Below the pieces are notes generated by a model. It did not search any database and had not been told where the DNA came from. It worked only from the letters and a program-made list of their open reading frames with translations. Position numbers and translations under genes: made by a program. Below are positions 3,015 to 60,760 of a DNA stretch of 64,000 bases, piece by piece. Source of the stretch: Rhynchobatus australiae. Taxonomy: Eukaryota. The stretch is taken from NCBI GenBank assembly GCA_034780895.1, contig JAUZTB010000076.1, positions 61,452,767 to 61,516,766 on the forward strand. The letters run 5' to 3'. Positions within the stretch are counted from its first letter, which is position 1. Each line of letters starts with the position of its first letter.

Positions 3015-4280
3015 ACATGTATTGGTTTATTATTGTCACTTGTACCGAGATACAGTGAAAAGCTTGTCTTACAAATCAATCGCACAGGTCAATTCATTAC
3101 ACAGTGAGTTGATACAAAGTGCAGTACGGGTAAAAACAGTAATGGTACAGAGTAAAGTTTCACAGCTACAGAGAAAGTGCAGTGCAATAAAGTGCAAGGT
3201 CACAACAAGGTAGATCGTGAGGTCATAGTCCATCTCATTGAATAGGGGAACCATTCAATATTCTTATTACAGTGGGGTAGAAGCTGTCCTTAAGTCTGGT
3301 GGTCTGTGCCGTCAGGCTCCTGTATCTTCTACCTGATGGAAGAGGAGAGAGTAACCCAGGTGGGTGGGTGGGGTCTTTGATTCTGCTGGCTGCGACACCA
3401 AGACAACGAGAGGTAAAGACAGAGTCCAAGGAGGGGAGACTGGTATCCATGATGCGCTGGGCTGTGTCCACAACTCTCTGCAGCTCCTTGCAGTCTTGGG
3501 CAGAGCAGTTGCCATACCAAGCCGTGATACATCCAGATAGAATGCTTTCTATGGTGCATCAGTAAAAGTTGGTGAGAGTCAAATGGGACAACAGAAATTT
3601 CTTTAGCCTCCTGAGGAAATAGAGGCACTGGTGAGCTTTCTTGGCCGTGACATCTACGTGATTTGACCAGGACAGGCTGTTGGTGATGTTCACTCCCAGG
3701 AACATGAAGCTGTCAGCCCTCTCGACCTCAGCACCATTGATGTAGACAGATGCATGTACACTGCCCCCTTTCCTGAAGTCAATGACCAGCTCGTTCGTTG
3801 ACATTGAGGGAAAGTTTGTTGCCATGACACCATTCCACTAAGCTCTCTATCTCCTTCCTGTACTCTGACTCATCACTGTTTGAGATACGGCCTATAACAG
3901 TGGTATCATCTGCAAACTTGTAGATGGAGTTAGAGCAGAATCTGGCCACACAGTCGTGAGTGTGGAGGGCTGAGGACGCAGTCTTGTGGGGCACCAGTGT
4001 TGAGAATAATTGTGCCGGGGGTATTGCTGCCTATCCTCACTGATTGCGGTCTGTTTGTTAGAAAATCAGAGATCCAGTTGCAGACAGAGTTGTTGAGTCC
4101 TAGGTCTCAGAGTTTGGTGACAAGCTTGCTTGGAATTATTGTATTAAAGGCAGAGCTGTAGTCAATAAACAATAGTCTATCACAAGTGTCTTTAATGTCC
4201 AGATGCTCCAGAGCTGAGTGTAAGGCCAGGGAGATGGCGTGCACTGTTGACCTGTTTCAGCGATAGGCAAATTGCACAGA
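3015..4280 (-). mobile_element. Rex1/Babar LINE, 5'-truncated
   Basis: RT motifs IYKFADDTTVIGRI, ELVIDFRK, KKAHQCLYFLRRLKKF, LPSGRRYRSL in minus-strand ORFs. Confidence 0.9.
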
Positions 4281-4304
4281 GTTCTTGTACGTTAATGCAT
4301 TAAT

Positions 4305-4530
4305 GATGAACTCTTGACCTCACAATCTACCTCATCATAGCCCTTGCATCTTATTGTTTACCTGCACTACACTTTCTCTGGAACTGTAACACTTTATTCT
4401 GCATCCTGCTATTGCTTTTCCCTTGTACTACCTCGATGTACTGACATGATGAAACGATCTGTATGGATGGCTTGGAAAACTACATTTTTCCACTGTATCT
4501 CAGTACATGTGACAATGATAAACCAATTTA
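4305..4530 (+). mobile_element. Rex1/Babar 3'-UTR fragment
   Basis: Reverse-complement similarity to 3015-3230 (cttgacctcacaatctacc...catgtgacaatgataaacc). Confidence 0.75.
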
Positions 4531-22751: not shown

Positions 22752-23509
22752 GTACAATCACTCTCATGATTGATAGTGTAGCTTCCCGAATGTTAAGACA
22801 AGATTGTAATAGATACAGATGCGTAATAGATAAATCTGGATTCACTTTTTCATGATAAAGGATATATATTGGTGAATATCTTGATTCTATACTTTAAGAG
22901 AAATTACTTTATCTTTCCATTGCTTGATGGTATCCAGTAATGGTCTTTATATTATTAACAGCAATCACTGGAAGAATCCATAAAAATTTGTGCAGATTGT
23001 AAACTTCGGGGGGGGAGGGGGACTCAAACAGTCTTAACGAGGCAGAAAAAATCTAACTTGGGCATGAGGTCACTTAATGACACATTCAAGTTTCTTTCGC
23101 ATGGCTTGCAGTAAGGGGGCTTTCTTCATGCCAGCTATATCTAGGGTTACAAGTGAGCCAGGATCATCCCAGAATAAAACACTTTCCCTTGGCATGTTTG
23201 TGTTTCATTTGAATATGTTTTGGATAATCAAAATTTTTATAGAAATTTGCCACTCTTATGGACTGATAAGTTTGTTCGGCATATACATGTGAGAAAAGAC
23301 AAAACATTATTCAGCTTATATTTTGCTTTGGGTGATCNNNNNNNNNNNNNNNNNNNNNNNNNNNNNNNNNNNNNNNNNNNNNNNNNNNNNNNNNNNNNNN
23401 NNNNNNNNNNNNNNNNNNNNNNNNNNNNNNNNNNNNNGTTTGTTCGGCATATACATGTGAGAAAAGACAAAACATTATTCAGCTTATATTTTGCTTTGGG
23501 TGATCTGTT

Positions 23510-31814: not shown

Positions 31815-34800
31815 GTTTCAAATGTAAGTGCCGAGGCTTTGATTCAAGAGCTTTCAGCATGTCAGAACCTGTCAGATGTGTGCCCAGCTGCAGCTCCTGG
31901 CTGACCACCTTGAGTGGCTGGAACTGCAGTTGAACTTGCTCAGGAGCTTACATGGTGCTGAGAGTACCAGTGAGGTGATCACCCCAAAGGTGCAAGCAGC
32001 AGGTAGTTGGGTGACCACCAGGAAAGGTAGAGGGGATAAGCAGAATGCAGGATTCCCCCAAGGCGATTCCCCTCAGGAACATGTGTCTTGTTTGGGATAC
32101 TGTTGAGGAGGATACTGGCCTTTCAGAGGAGAGCAACAGCAGTAGCCAGATCTGCAGCATTTCCACTCATGGCATACTTTGCAAATCTCCTGTACAATCT
32201 TACCAGTGCAATCACAGGGAGTTCATGATTAATCAAAAGCTGCTGGCTCTGATACACAGCAGGGGAGAGTAGAGACAGAGGGAGCTGTGGTGGTAAAGAC
32301 CCAATAGTTTGGGGGACAGGCAGCAGTTTCTGTGGCCGTGAACAAGACTCCAGGATGGTATGTTGCTTTCCAGGGTGAAGGATGCCTCCAAGCAGTTGTA
32401 GAATATTGTCAAGGGGAAGGTGAGCAGCCGGAGGTCGTTGTACACATTGGTACCAATGACATTGGTAGAAAAAGGGATGAGGTCCTGCAGAGTGAATGTT
32501 GGGAGTTATGCAGAAGGTTAAAAAGGAGAATCTCAAGTGCTTTCGTCTCTGGATTACTCCCATTGCCATGTGCTAGTGCGGGTAGGAATAGGAGGATAGA
32601 GCAGATGAATGCAGACTGAGGAGCTGGTGCAGGAGGGAGGGATTCGGGTTTTGGACCATTGAGAACTCTTCTGGGGTAGAGGTGACCTGTACAAGAGGGA
32701 CAGATTACACTTGAACTGGAGGGGGATCCAACATCCTGGCAGTGAGATTTGCTAATGCTGCTTGGGAGGGTAGTCTGGCAAGGGTTGGGAACCAAAGCAG
32801 GAGTGTGGCAGTTGAGAAAGTTAGGCAGATGAGCTTAGGGCATGGAATGGTACATGGGACTGGAACATTAGAGCTATTAAAGAACCATGGTTAAGGGTTG
32901 GGCAGGTGCGGTTGCATTTATGATTAGGGAGAATATCATGGCAGTACCTGGAGAGGAAATTCCTGGGGAATTGTTCTGTGAGGCTATATAGGTAGAATTT
33001 GGAAGTAAGAACAAATTGGAAATATTCTTTTATTGTCACATGTACCAAGGTACAGTGAGAAACTTGTTTTTCATGCCATCCTTACAGGTCATTTTCATTT
33101 CATTACAACAGTGTGTTAAGGTAGTGCNNNNNNNNNNNNNNNNNNNNNNNNNNNNNNNNNNNNNNNNNNNNNNNNNNNNNNNNNNNNNNNNNNNNNNNNN
33201 NNNNNNNNNGAAGTAGATTGTGAGGTCAAGAGTCCATCTTATTGTACTAGGGAACCGTTCAATAATCTTATAACAGCAGGATAGAAGCTATTCTAGAGCC
33301 TGGTGGTATGTGCTTTCAAGCTTTTGTATCTTCTGCCCGATGGGATGGGGGGAGAAGAGAGAATGTCTGGGGTGGGTGGGGTCTTTGATTATGCTGGCTG
33401 GTTTACTGAGGCATCGAGAAGTGTAGAAGAGTCCATGGAGGGGAGGCTGGTTTATGTGATGTGTTGAGTTGGGTCCACAACTCTCCGCAGTTTATTGCGG
33501 AGTTGCCATAACAAGCTTTCTATGGTGTATTGATAAAAGTTGGTGAGGGTCAAAGGGGACATCCCAAATTTCTGAAGCCTCCTGAGGAAGTAGAGGCACT
33601 GGTGAGCTTTCTTGATCATATCGTTGACGTTGTTGGACCAGGACAGGCTATTGGTGATGTTTACTTCCAGGAACTTGAAGCTTTCAACCCTCTCAACAGC
33701 ACCATTGATGTAAACAGGAGCGTGTGCACCACCCCACTTCCTGAAGTCAATGACCAGCTCTTTTGTTTTGCTGACATTGAGAAAAGGTTGTTATCATGAC
33801 CTCATTCCACTAGGCTCTCTGTCTCCTTCCTGTACTCAACTCATTGTTATTTGAGATTCGGTCCACTATGGTGGTGTCATCTGCAAACTTGTAGATGGAG
33901 TTAGAGCAGAATCTGGCCAAGCAGTTGTGAGTGTATAGGGTGCAAAGTAGGGGCTGAGCACGCAGTCTTGTGGGGCACCAGTGTTGAGAATAATCTTGGC
34001 AGAGGTGTTGCTGCCTGTCCTTACTGATTGCAGTCTGTTGGTCAGGAAGTCAAGGACCCAGCTGCAAAAAGAGGTGTTGAGTCCCATGTCTAGGAGTTTG
34101 GAGATGAGTTTGCTTGGAATTATAGCATTGAAGGTGGAGCTGTAGTTAACAAACAATAGTCTAATGTAGGTTTCTTTACTGTCCAGATGCTCCAGAGATG
34201 AATGAAGAGCCAGGGAGATGGTATCCACTGTAGACCTGTTTCAACAGTAGGCAAATTGCAGTGGGTCAAGGTTGTCTGGGAGGCTTGAGTTAATGTGTGC
34301 CATGACCAGCCTCTTGAAGCACTTCGTGATGGTGTATATCTGAGTAACTGGACGGTAGTTATTAATGCACTTGTTTTTCTTGGGTACCAGGATGATAATG
34401 GTTTTCTTAAAGCAGATTGAAGCAGGGAGAGGTTAAAAATTTGTGCAGATACCCCTGCCAGCTGATCTGTGTAGGATCTGAGGACACAGCTGGGAACACC
34501 ATCTGGGCTAAATGCTTTCCATGGGTTCATTCTTTGGAAGACCAACCTTATATCTACTATAGGTCAGGGTCACCTGATTTGAACGCCACAGGGGATGATC
34601 ACTTTGGGATTGTACGAAAGGCCCCCTCTCTTCCGCCCCCCCCCCCCAGATTGCAAATATCTGTAAAAATAATGGGGTTGAAATGATTATAACTTCCCTA
34701 ATATTGACTGGAACTGGGTAGGGTGAAATTTGTTATATGTGTCCAGGAAAGTTTTCTCATACATTATATAGATGGTTCCACTTGAGAGGGGGATCTTTTG

Positions 34801-42239: not shown

Positions 42240-43483
42240 TGGGGACAGCTTCGAAGATGGCCATTTGGTCCATTGTGTCCATACCGGTCATATGTAACAG
42301 CATACAACTAGTCCCACACTCTTGCCCTCTTCCGAAAGCAGTGCAAATTCTCTGTTCTGACATTATCCAGTTCCTTTCTGAATTCTGCAATTGAATCTCT
42401 CTCCACTACCACTCGCTAACCGTGAGGAAAGAAGACTTTTCCTCATGTCATTTTTGATTGTTTCACCAATTACTATCATCCAAAGTCCCATAATTCTTGG
42501 TGTCTCCCCTAAGGAGAATATTTTCTTTCTACTGTCTAAACCCTCCATGATTTTGATTACCTCTGTTGGTTGTCCTGTCAACATCCTCCATTCCAAGGAG
42601 AGCAACCCCAGCTTCTCCAGTCCATCCCTTGTCCCTGGAATCATTTTACTAAATTTCTTCTGCACTCCTCAAAAAGCTTTTGCATCTTTTGTAAAATTTG
42701 ATACCCAGAACTGAGCACATTACTCCATTAATGGTATAAATAGTGTTTTATAAAGTTCATTTCAGTTTCCTCAATTTTGTACTCTGTGCTGCTCTTTGGA
42801 AAGCCTAAGATCTCTACGACTTATTTAACCATTTTGAGTCAGCCCTGCCAATTTCAGTTAACTACTTGCATATATCCCCATACTTCTATTTCGCAGTAGC
42901 TCTAGTTTTGTTTCTTTCTAGCCTCTTCTCATTCTTCCTGCCAGAATGTAATACTTCGTATTTCTCAGAATTGAATTTCATCTGCCTCCCAGGTGCCCAT
43001 TCCAACAGCCTTTTTACACCTCCTCATATTTGGTTCTGCCTCCATGTTTTATGTCATCTGCAATTTTGGAAATTATGTTCTACTCCTGTCATTAATAAAT
43101 GTTAAGAAAAACAGTGATCTTCGTAGCAACTGTTACGGACTAGGACTATTAGTGAGGTTCCTTTAAGATGGAGTGTGTGTGTGGCGTGCTTACGTCAACA
43201 GAAGATAAAGAATGTTATGATGTTGTTGTTGAAACAACCAGTGGAAGTCAGTCTGAAGGAGAGAGAGAGACCAGCCTGCTTGTTTTCTCTATCGATGGAT
43301 GAGAAACAATAACTGTGACTGTNNNNNNNNNNNNNNNNNNNNNNNNNNNNNNNNNNNNNNNNNNNNNNNNNNNNNNNNNNNNNNNNNNNNNNNNNNNNNN
43401 NNNNNNNNNNNNNNNNNNNNNNATTGCAGTGACAGTCACAGTTATTGTTTCTCATCCATCGATAGAGAAAACAAGCAGGCTGG

Positions 43484-43515
<32 letters not shown>

Positions 43516-45350
43516 GTGTCTCTCTCCTTCAGACTGACTTCCACTGGTTGTTTCAACAACAACGTCATGACGTTCTTTATCTTCTGTTGATGTAAGCACG
43601 CCACACACTCTGACGTAAGCATGCCACACACACCATCTTAAAGGAACCTTACTAATAGTCCTAGTCCATAACACAACCACTGAAGAACTTCATTGTACAC
43701 TTCCCTCCAGTTCTAACTATTACTCTCTGTTTCCTGTTACTTCGCCAATGTAGTATCCATGCTGGTGCAGCCCCTCTTATTACATTGTCTCCAAACTTAA
43801 TGAAAATTATGTGGTTTATGCCTTCTAGAAGCACATTAACCACATTTCCCTCTTCAACCCTCTCAGTTACTTAATCAAAAAATGTTATCAAGTTTGTTAA
43901 TGATAATTTGCTTTTAACAAATCCATGATGGCTTTCTCCAGCCAATCTACACAATCTGAATGACTGCCAATGTTATTTTAAGAACATTCCCATCACCAAG
44001 GTCTATAGTTACTGAATTTACACCATACCTTTTTTAAATCAAGGTAACATTTACAGTTTCCTGGTCCTCAGTTTGCACCCCAAACCTATGGATGCATTGC
44101 TATGACCAAGGTCTCTGTCACTTTCTCCCTTACTTCCTGCAGCAATTTAGGATGCAATGTGTATCAAGCTTTTATGGCATTTCTTTATCAATTTTTAGCT
44201 CATTCTTAATATTGATTAATCTTCCTTTTGAGGCTCCAGTTTCCCTCTAGCATGATTATATCTTACTTAATTAGGACCCAGTTCCATTTTCCCTTCCCTA
44301 TTCTCTATTAACACTTTGTATCCTGAATGTTAATTCCTCAGTTCAGTCTTTTTTGAGCTTTGTTTCAGTCATGCAGCTGTATCCTAATCCAAACTGACTT
44401 ATTGTATTTGCAGTTCTGAAATCTGTATATTAATGTACACTCATTTTCTATTCCTTGTATTCTCTGAGTCTGCTCCAACTTAATATTGTATTTCTTATCT
44501 ATCCCTACCAAACATTCCCTTTGCTTTGTGCACTTCTTTTATGTTACCATGTGCTGATAGCCATCACCCTGCTAATTTAATTTAATCCTTCCACAAGAGT
44601 GAATACGAGTCTCAGGCCTGTCATGCTGCAATTTGTCCATCTTGGAGCAGGTCCCTTATAGTCCTTGTGCCCCCAAGAATCTGAAGCATTCCCTTCTGCC
44701 TGATCTTTCTGTTTCTACTGTCACTCTCATTGGAAGTAATCCAGAGATTGCTGCCTTCAAAATCCTGCTTTATAGCTTCTTCCTTGGCTCCTGAAACTCT
44801 GCCTGTAGGATCACAATATATACTCTGCCGTTCCAACACAAACCTCAGCTGCTGGTTCCTCCTGTTCCTCCCTTAGAATGTTCTTCCCAATCCCTGTGAC
44901 ATTTTGCCCTGGCATCAGGAAGCCAACATAATGCACGATGCACATTCAGAGTTACAGAAAAACCCATATGCTCCCTGACCATGGAATCCTCATAACTACT
45001 GCATTCCTCACCTTTTTTTTCTTGTTCCTTTTATCCCTTGGTTCTGTGTTCTGTACTCCCTCAAGGTCTCATCACCTGCAACAATCTCTAAAACCTTGCT
45101 TTGGGAAATAGAGACCTTTCAGTTCCTACCTCTTTTGGATGGCCATCACTTACTATCCTGAATTCTTGAGATTGTTGGGTTTCCACCATCTGGAACATTG
45201 AGAAATTCTCAACTTCCCTTTGTTTCTCAAAAGGTCTAGCTACCCCTCAGACTCAAGAGGTCCTAACCTGAGTTTAAACAACTAGAGTCCACTTTTACAT
45301 GTGTGGTCTGCCAGAACCCATTAAATTGCCACAGGTCATGAATAGCAGAT
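42240..45350 (-). mobile_element. Old CR1 LINE (host of the inverted-arm element)
   Basis: LEKLGLLSLEW, EVIKIMEG, IKFGDN; esterase-like ORF1 remnants at 44600-45000. Confidence 0.7.
43131..43673. mobile_element. Long-inverted-arm element with TGT...ACA ends and 4-bp TSD (Ginger-like or inverted-LTR); centre in an N gap
   Basis: 43131-43322 is the reverse complement of about 43432-43673 with substitutions and indels; flanked by CAAC on both sides; interrupts a continuous CR1 sequence. Confidence 0.8.
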
Positions 45351-58911: not shown

Positions 58912-59554
58912 CCTCTCACCTTTCTTGAAGATTGTTATTACAGCATCTTTGAACTCCTCAGTATTTTGGAGACACTTAATAGAAACATCACTAAACAAGA
59001 AGTTGACACTGAAGCATATAAAGACGTGGTAGGCCAGTACCTAAAAACTTCATCAAAGAGATGGAAGCAGAAAAGAAGAAAGGTTTTTTAAGTAAATTTC
59101 AGAGCTTAGTGCCTTGGCAGCTGGTGACACAGCTAACATTTTAGTATGCGTTTATCAATTTTCAGAGTACAGTAGGGGACATTGGTTGTGTTCACTGGAA
59201 ACATATGATTTAAGTATCAGAGCTCTAGCATTAGTTTGCAGTAAGCAAATTTTATGAGCTCCAAAACTAAAAAGTGAAAATTTAACAGAGAATTCTTACC
59301 TGAATTTTATCTAAACAAAATTGAAAGCTCGCTACAGGGTCAGCTTTCTTTAGAAGTAGTACTTTAGAACTGAAGGAAATACTGAATTAAACAAATCTTT
59401 AGCCCTCAAAGTTTGTTTTTTACAGTCAATCTGTTGCACAGATTGTAACATTAAATATACCTAATTTACTTAGTTGTCCAAAGGAAACAATTGCAATTAA
59501 AATTCCAAGAAGGTGAAGCTCTTCAAATGTTCCATCAACTTTATGAGTAACACA

Positions 59555-60760
59555 AGTATTGGTATTGGTTTATTATTGTCACTTGCACTGAGGTACAGTA
59601 AAAAAACTTGTCTTGCATACCATTTGTACAGATCAATTCATTGCACTATGCATTGAGGTAGTACAGGGTAAAAACAATAACAGAATACAGAGTAAAGTGT
59701 CACAGCTACAGGGAAGTGCATTGCANNNNNNNNNNNNNNNNNNNNNNNNNNNNNNNNNNNNNNNNNNNNNNNNNNNNNNNNNNNNNNNNNNNNNNNNNNN
59801 NNNNNNNNNNNNNNNNNNNNNNNNNTGCAGTTACATTGAGTTAGTACAGAGTGCATTGATGTAGTACAGGTAAGAACAATAACAGTACAGAGTAAAGTGT
59901 CAGAGCTACAGAGGAAATGCAGTGCAGCTACACAATAAGGTGCAAGGTCACAACAAGGTAGATTGTGAGGTCAAGAGTCCATCTCATCGTTTCAGGGAAC
60001 CATTCAATAGTCTTATCACAGAGGGATAGAAGCTGTCCTTGAGCTTGGTGGTATGTGCCCTCAGGCTCCTGTCTGTTCTACCCAATTGAAGAGGAGAGAA
60101 GAGAGAATGACCTGGGTGGGTGGGGTCTTTGATCATGCTAGCTGCTTCACCAAGGCAGCAAGAGGTAAAGACATGGAGGGGAGGCTGGTTTCTGTGATGT
60201 GCTGACCTGTGTCCACGATGCTTTGCAATTTCTTGTGGTCCCGGGCAGAGCAGTTGCCATACCAAGCTGTGATGCATCCAGATGGGATGCTTTCTATGGT
60301 GCATTGATAAAAGTTAGTGAGTGTCAAAGAGGGCAATCTGAATTTCTCTAGCCTCCTGAGGAAGTAGAGGTGCTGGTGAGCTTTCTTGGCTGTGGCATCT
60401 ATGTCATTGGACCAGTACAGGTTATTGGTGATGATCACTCCTAGGAACTTGAAGGTCTCAACCTTCTCGACCTCAGCACTGTTGGTGCAGACAGGTGCAT
60501 GTACACCACCCACTTTCCTGAAGTCAATTACCAGCTCTTTTGTTTTGTTAACATTGAGGCAAAGGTTGTTATCATGACACCAAGTCACTAAGCTCCCTGT
60601 CTCCTTCCTGTACTATGTCTCATCATTATTTGAGATACAGCCTACTACGGTGGTATCATCTGCAAACTTGTAGATGGAGTTAGAGCAGAATCTGGCCACG
60701 CCATCATGAATCTATAGGGAGTAGAGTAGAGGCCTGAGGACATAGCCTTGTGGGGCACGT
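59555..60760 (-). mobile_element. Rex1/Babar LINE, 5'-truncated
   Basis: WCHDNNLCLNVNKTKELVIDFRK, FKFLGV, LYFLRRL motifs. Confidence 0.9.

Follow-up and report, generated by a model that had tools for sequence, protein, structure and literature searches.

The insertion described here carries the same end of an LTR on both of its sides. It lies in a stretch of 64,000 nucleotides from Rhynchobatus australiae (we call that whole stretch the window). Its two ends are both U3 ends of a common Gmr1-type Gypsy LTR, the second one inverted, inside an intact target-site duplication (TSD), and both come from a single template. We believe it is probably a failed product of reverse transcription, one that overran into the primer tRNA-Pro, turned back to U3 and was integrated through two U3 ends. 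The tRNA centre would lie within an assembly gap, and we place it there by analogy with sister loci. In our opinion this is a known kind of element, the Gypsy LTR, that misfired, in a form that we did not find described in the literature searched.

Anatomy of the insertion

Table 1. Features of the insertion and its flanks (positions in the window)
Feature	Position	Strand	Remarks
Host interspersed repeat, left flank	42860..43126	-	Old; only one near-identical place in genome
Left TSD copy, CAAC	43127..43130	.	4-bp target-site duplication
Left arm	43131..43322	+	U3 end (first ~190 bp) of a Gmr1-type Gypsy LTR, truncated by the gap
Assembly gap, N100	43323..43422	.	Run of 100 N
Right arm	43423..43673	-	First ~200 LTR positions (U3 end), inverted; same subtype as left arm
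GA/CT tract, long form	43484..43527	-	In right arm; long form common in LTR family
Tandem duplication, 23-bp spacing	43588..43631	+	In right arm
Right TSD copy, CAAC	43674..43677	.	4-bp target-site duplication
Host interspersed repeat, right flank	43678..43977	-	Collinear with left flank

The arms are reverse complements across all 192 columns of the left arm, with seven substitutions between them, four of which are of CpG type (blastn within the 64-kb window, E 4e-56). Both have the terminus TGTTA. Up to the gap they measure 192 and 251 bp, and the right arm reaches 9 bases deeper into the LTR than the left. Two indels also separate them: the right arm has the long form of the GA/CT tract where the left has the short one, and it alone has the duplication with 23-bp spacing. 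A preliminary description of this DNA had reported CAAC on both sides, inverted arms with a gap between them and just these differences between the arms, and all of this holds. The locus itself is probably inert.

The run of N is a placeholder and not a real length; the window has 17 gaps, and 10 of them measure exactly 100 N. Elsewhere in the window (23270-23505) an N100 gap is flanked by a 68-bp exact duplication, so such gaps can have a negative size. A palindromic MITE without a core was considered and rejected, since the apparent palindrome centre at the inner end of the right arm is simply LTR position ~200.

The host repeat is presumably LINE-like, judging by its motifs. Both flanks were matched in 7 of 24 host-repeat loci, on the same strand in all seven. 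The implied gap between the flanks is -6 to +10 in four of these loci; in the other three it is 31-54, a value extrapolated across long unaligned stretches. The earlier claim that a host CR1 reads continuously across the site is therefore right about the continuity, closely so in four loci, but the name CR1 is unconfirmed, with no Pfam hit to the flanks in six frames. The window also holds diverged copies (70-80%) of another interspersed repeat at 3019-4527, 33032-34440 and 59549-60758, in both orientations, some of them adjoining gaps.

Contigs from a related species

It could be argued that the structure is an artefact of assembly or haplotype, either a mis-joined solo LTR or merged alleles in opposite orientation. 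There are grounds for the suspicion: an N100 gap lies within all four loci where only the outer arms are seen (the window, L027, L048 and L079), and the assembly is fragmented at most LTRs. Contigs from other sequencing runs speak to this directly. Run X10 is from a different organism, with flanks ~97% identical to the window. One of its contigs spans 42598-43153 and another 43651-43938, and each carries 23 arm bases at its junction, the 5′ arm at both. This is less than the 31-base bridging rule of our tool, but 23 bases suffice to distinguish U3 from U5 because only about 7 terminal bases are common to the two. At the right junction there is at most one difference in the 23 right-arm bases. 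Run X9 gave the left junction only, with no differences, and flank coverage in runs X1 and X2 is too thin to inform; the comparison covered these four of the 10 runs listed.

The presence of the 5′ arm at both junctions in a related species argues against mis-assembly, and hence against the mis-scaffolded solo LTR that had been named as a finding that would overturn the preliminary description. No other place in the assembly is near-identical to the left flank, the arms are separated by seven substitutions and two indels, and the junctions from tRNA to arm are ungapped in six sister loci. We regard an artefact as very improbable.

The arm: 5′ end of an ordinary LTR

A first genome search by similarity to the arm returned 2,769 candidates. 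The exact 26-base motif at its 5′ end has 1,405 matches in the genome against none for the control, and by this exact count the LTR family has at least 1,405 copies. Ungapped copies are 624-860 bp long, and their far end has a polyA signal and a U5 that is unlike the U3 end. The family has TG...CA ends, the polyA signal, a 4-bp TSD, a PBS after the 5′ LTR and a purine tract before the 3′ LTR, all of which are features of Gypsy LTRs.

Two samples of copies were compared. Among 57 distinct loci picked for their likeness to the arm, 20 are ordinary copies in 5′→3′ order and 3 are inverted (the window, L027 and L048), each of the three with a perfect TSD. The other sample was picked by the motif, whose seed fixes one subtype marker, and comes from one chromosome-scale contig; the first 84 of the 1,405 matches gave 79 copies once 3 already in the set and 2 in L060 were omitted. 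In it 38 copies are ordinary, 24 of them with a perfect 4-bp TSD, one is inverted (L079, whose TSD has one mismatch) and 40 have no visible far end. Where the far end can be seen, then, 38 of 39 copies are ordinary LTRs and 1 of 39 is inverted, a frequency that rests on the 79 motif-picked copies only. The TSDs at the other gapped inverted loci are ACTA, CTAC and ATTG/ATTT. The window insertion is not an ordinary solo LTR, which has U3 on one side and U5 on the other; both of its ends are U3, in the assembly as well as in the X10 contigs.

The preliminary description had offered an LTR-derived element with inverted termini as its second option, with insertion by a Gypsy-type integrase, and both ideas are borne out. 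It had also proposed asking genome-wide whether the arm occurs in inverted pairs or as the 5′ end of direct LTRs, and the 38 resolved copies answer for the latter. Two loci met along the way deserve mention. L060, taken as a candidate full-length element, was rejected because it is two separate solo LTRs. At L015 (1460-1910) an LTR is cut at about position 363, with ~45 bp of flank duplicated on both sides, as in one-ended integration.

The parent retrotransposon

The end of the LTR followed by a PBS occurs at 81 places, against 0 in the control. The coding region in L163 has the layout SCAN, zinc knuckle, protease-like motif, integrase, purine tract and second LTR. The domain matches are SCAN PF02023 (E 6e-8), Integrase_H2C2 (E 3e-13) and rve (E 6e-9); the zinc knuckle is weak (E 0.015) and the protease-like motif was read by eye. 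No RT was found in L163. In related loci, where integrase identity is 76-78%, rve lies upstream of RVT_1 in two of the four scanned (L211 and L212). The 3.3 kb of these two RT-bearing relatives gave no match to the LTR.

In the literature, integrase before RT is given as a mark of the Gmr1 clade (PMC8220671), and in frog SCAN turned up in Gmr elements only (PMC4131045). A SCAN-bearing gag, integrase right after protease, RT after integrase in relatives and a 4-bp TSD are all shared with that clade, and judged by these domains and their order the parent of the arm LTR appears to be a Gmr1-type Gypsy element. An endogenous retrovirus would have the order PR-RT-RH-IN and an env; here integrase directly follows protease, and the scanned frames gave no env hit. 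Gmr1 elements have U3...U5 ends, whereas the window insertion has inverted U3 at both ends and no coding sequence is seen in it.

L163 (G000:C5382), L207 and L214 each have gag, protease and integrase and then a 3′ LTR, without an RT domain, and may form an RT-less non-autonomous subfamily. Just past the PBS, the leaders of L163 and others contain several short repeats similar to the 3′ half of the PBS.

One template for both arms

Leaving out CpG sites, the window arms differ by 3 substitutions. Unselected copies differ by at least 8 from the left arm (24 copies) and at least 9 from the right arm (30 copies), and even the best genome-wide matches differ by at least 4 from the left (53 compared) and at least 5 from the right (57 compared). 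Of all the copies compared, then, each arm has its nearest relative in the other, which means that one template gave rise to both. Among the inverted loci the two arms are of one subtype in 7 of 7, where two random copies would agree with a probability of 0.27-0.40, and in L150, which falls outside the marker classes, both arms have the same rare spelling. Between loci there is no such agreement, for they span at least three subtypes and have different junctions. It follows that each inverted locus arose separately from one LTR template. They are not an amplified TIR family, and the copies compared gave no sign of an inverted family that spreads. Each inverted product appears to have arisen afresh and to lead no further.

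One could instead suppose that integrase took one U3 end from each of two separate cDNAs and inserted both at a single site, and that the centre was joined or deleted later. Such an event would yield two U3 ends with a normal TSD, and integrase can use two donor molecules in vitro. The difficulty is that with 7 of 7 loci of one subtype both cDNAs would have to come from one source every time, and the centres that can be seen are short RT-switch junctions and not two elements. We find this scenario improbable.

Sister loci with a copy of tRNA-Pro

All 81 loci with an LTR end and a PBS were taken as sister loci and their sequences retrieved. Past the PBS, 35 of the 81 follow the complement of tRNA-Pro for 24-69 nt instead of the element's leader, and the points where the copy stops cluster at 34-41 and 63-69 nt. 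Since the first bases of the tRNA are missing from the copies, ARAGORN called a tRNA-Pro in just 1 of 12 loci. Six of the 35 (L150, L159, L160, L180, L183 and L197) switch from the tRNA copy to an inverted U3 end, ungapped in the assembly; the inverted stretch is the reverse complement of the first ~100-210 LTR positions, out to the U3 terminus. Both ends are visible in three of them, L150, L159 and L180, and all three have a matching 4-bp TSD, with the terminal bases altered in L180. Read by eye, L145 and L147 have the same kind of ending, on very short arms. The unplaced contigs L250 and L261 run from an LTR end through PBS and tRNA copy into inverted LTR; pieces of this sort would be lost from such loci in a short-read assembly. 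By eye, L250 and L248 are seen to switch onto a 6-base match within the leader. Of the remaining read-through copies, most run out into host DNA and have no second LTR end.

The wobble column of the tRNA copy reads C in 17 of 21 copies, A in 3, G in 1 and T in none; as tRNA bases these are G34 in 17, U34 in 3, C34 in 1 and A34 in none. According to PMC4446420, the base read for inosine-34 is G, and where A34 genes exist there are none with G34. Taken together with the dominance of C, this suggests that the tRNA piece was likely copied from mature tRNA-Pro, the inosine reading being drawn from that literature. Misincorporation opposite A58 is 3/29 against 2/29 at the next position, which is not clearly raised.

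The main competitor of our reading is that one copy of the LTR was folded back without any tRNA. This could have happened in two ways. Plus-strand DNA might have changed strands within the LTR ahead of integration. Or else a solo LTR already in place might have lost its 3′ part to a copy of the 5′ part, by a template switch during replication at the terminal inverted repeat of 7 bp. A single template and an intact TSD are explained equally well by such a fold-back. The LTR contains a perfect 14-bp palindrome, L159 has a fold-back near it, and L133 passes into inverted LTR after 27 bp without tRNA. Against this, among the 7 PBS loci with inverted U3, a sample selected by the PBS, 6 have a tRNA copy ahead of the visible junction and the seventh is gapped. 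The tRNA-centred loci were all selected in this way, so the frequency of other centres cannot be inferred from them. The seven arm substitutions, together with a site common to a second species, fit an origin at or near insertion. On balance we think a fold-back unlikely, although it deserves to be taken seriously.

Two further comparisons bear on the hidden centre. Of 137 arms picked by their 5′ end, 0 run ungapped into tRNA sequence, where a rough count would lead one to expect fewer than 1. L250 and L261 share only 11-19-base repeat matches with the gap edges of the four gapped loci, and this gives no tie to the window gap.

The sister loci also show other arrangements. Inverted U5 ends adjoin tRNA read-through copies in L147, L194 and L155, and L147 has a matching TSD (CATT) with outer U3 and U5 ends around an internal inversion. 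In L177, L172, L169 and L151 the tRNA copy or leader gives way to the U5 end once more, in direct orientation, with matching TSDs in the first three. L260 (G000:C78013) passes from a 69-nt tRNA copy directly into same-strand sequence of the gag region. An ARAGORN tRNA-like call at L149 (8678-8752) has the anticodon TTA (stop) and is probably a pseudogene or SINE.

How the insertion may have formed

We propose that plus-strand strong-stop DNA overran its stop in the primer tRNA-Pro. The overrun strand would have annealed through a short match to plus-strand LTR sequence, perhaps its own or that of a sister strand, and would then have been extended to the U3 end and made double-stranded. The strand switch presumably took place in the particle, before integration. 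Integrase would finally have inserted the product through its two U3 ends, leaving the 4-bp TSD. Since the sister loci show the order LTR, PBS, tRNA complement, inverted U3 and TSD, we predict that the window gap holds the rest of the LTR, the PBS, the tRNA-Pro complement and the switch point, up to ~1.2 kb if it is like L250.

The first of these steps has precedents in the literature. Plus-strand strong-stop DNA is normally halted by m1A58, and read-through adds foreign sequence so that the second transfer fails (PMC11251516; m1A58 read-through is also treated in PMC8599865). In Ty3 a strand with a tRNA tail is displaced and builds up as a dead end (PMC5371799).

Comparison with Ginger and other known systems

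The first option of the preliminary description was a Ginger-like element. More broadly, one may think of a DNA transposon family, Ginger-like or MITE-like, whose TIRs are long and whose transposase would lie unseen in the gap. As described in PMC2836005, Ginger1 has TIRs of 40-270 bp, TGTNR ends and CCGG/CCGT targets. The likeness is real: the visible arms, at 192 and 251 bp with the gap hiding their full length, fall within that range and have TGTNR ends, the TSD is 4 bp, and as in Ginger1 and Ginger2 the inserting enzyme would be a Gypsy-type integrase. The target is another matter, for it is CAAC here and none of the 24 solo-LTR TSDs is CCGG or CCGT/ACGG. Nor does the same TIR pair recur at many sites, as only 1 of 39 resolved copies is inverted; the arm is an LTR end in the other 38, and the inverted loci span several subtypes with differing junctions. 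The window insertion is therefore not classed as Ginger. The integrase that we did find sits in an LTR element with gag and protease, and the visible centres of the sister loci contain no integrase-like transposase ORF. Since those centres hold LTR, PBS and tRNA-derived sequence, a transposase in the window gap is unlikely. The Ginger-like reading is largely refuted, and we would now give it scarcely any credence. What sets the insertion apart from Ginger1 and Ginger2 is that no transposase is seen, there is no amplified family and no CCGG/CCGT target, and its arms are LTR ends with a PBS elsewhere in the family.

Other systems share parts of this structure. The dead-end strong-stop DNA of Ty3/Ty1 and the m1A58 read-through of HIV-1/HTLV-1 (PMC5371799, PMC11251516, PMC8599865) have the same combination of an LTR, a tail copied from tRNA and a failed second transfer. 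Those forms are unintegrated intermediates or laboratory products, whereas the sister loci are integrated, heritable and frequent (35/81 PBS copies). Unlike them, the sister products extend into the tRNA by up to 69 nt, and in some the switch to U3 restores a second end for integrase. The inversion circles that arise by autointegration (PMC7197481) are likewise rearranged LTR DNA made in particles, but they are extrachromosomal and keep the inverted part between LTRs. The TRIM Helenus (PMC10886601) likewise joins tRNA-like sequence to an LTR element; unlike the window insertion, its LTRs are direct and contain the tRNA-like part, and it forms an amplified family. The RT recombination of PMC6894440 is also to be set apart from the window structure. 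We found no description of integrated products with LTR, tRNA and inverted U3 in the largely open-access literature searched, and older Ty and retrovirus work likely has related junctions.

Implications

Bao et al. 2010 (PMC2836005) regard the steps by which an LTR retrotransposon becomes a DNA transposon with TIRs as unclear and suggest two independent LTRs in opposite orientation. The window insertion resembles the missing intermediate proposed there, with one template in place of two independent LTRs. The sister loci point to a route to LTR-derived TIRs that needs one template and one round of replication and ends in a normal integrase TSD. If this is true, a retrotransposon could gain inverted ends like those of a DNA transposon in one step.

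In the sister loci a mature primer tRNA would also be preserved as germline copies, likely with a trace of inosine, and the share of PBS-bearing copies with read-through, 35 of 81, suggests frequent failure of the tRNA stop in this lineage. There is a lesson for annotation as well, in that such loci mimic TIR elements or tRNA genes and break short-read assemblies.

We can take the argument further, to an idea that we think rather improbable. Read-through of the tRNA with a strand switch might be a recurrent one-step route to TIRs, some of whose products, having switched in the interior, captured an integrase ORF or moved again as DNA. The LTR family would then hold real proto-Ginger1 elements. 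Among the loci examined, none was seen to be an inverted copy that had been re-mobilised or that bears integrase. Switches into interior sequence do occur (L248, L250 and L260), and integrase-bearing copies without RT are present at L163, L207 and L214.
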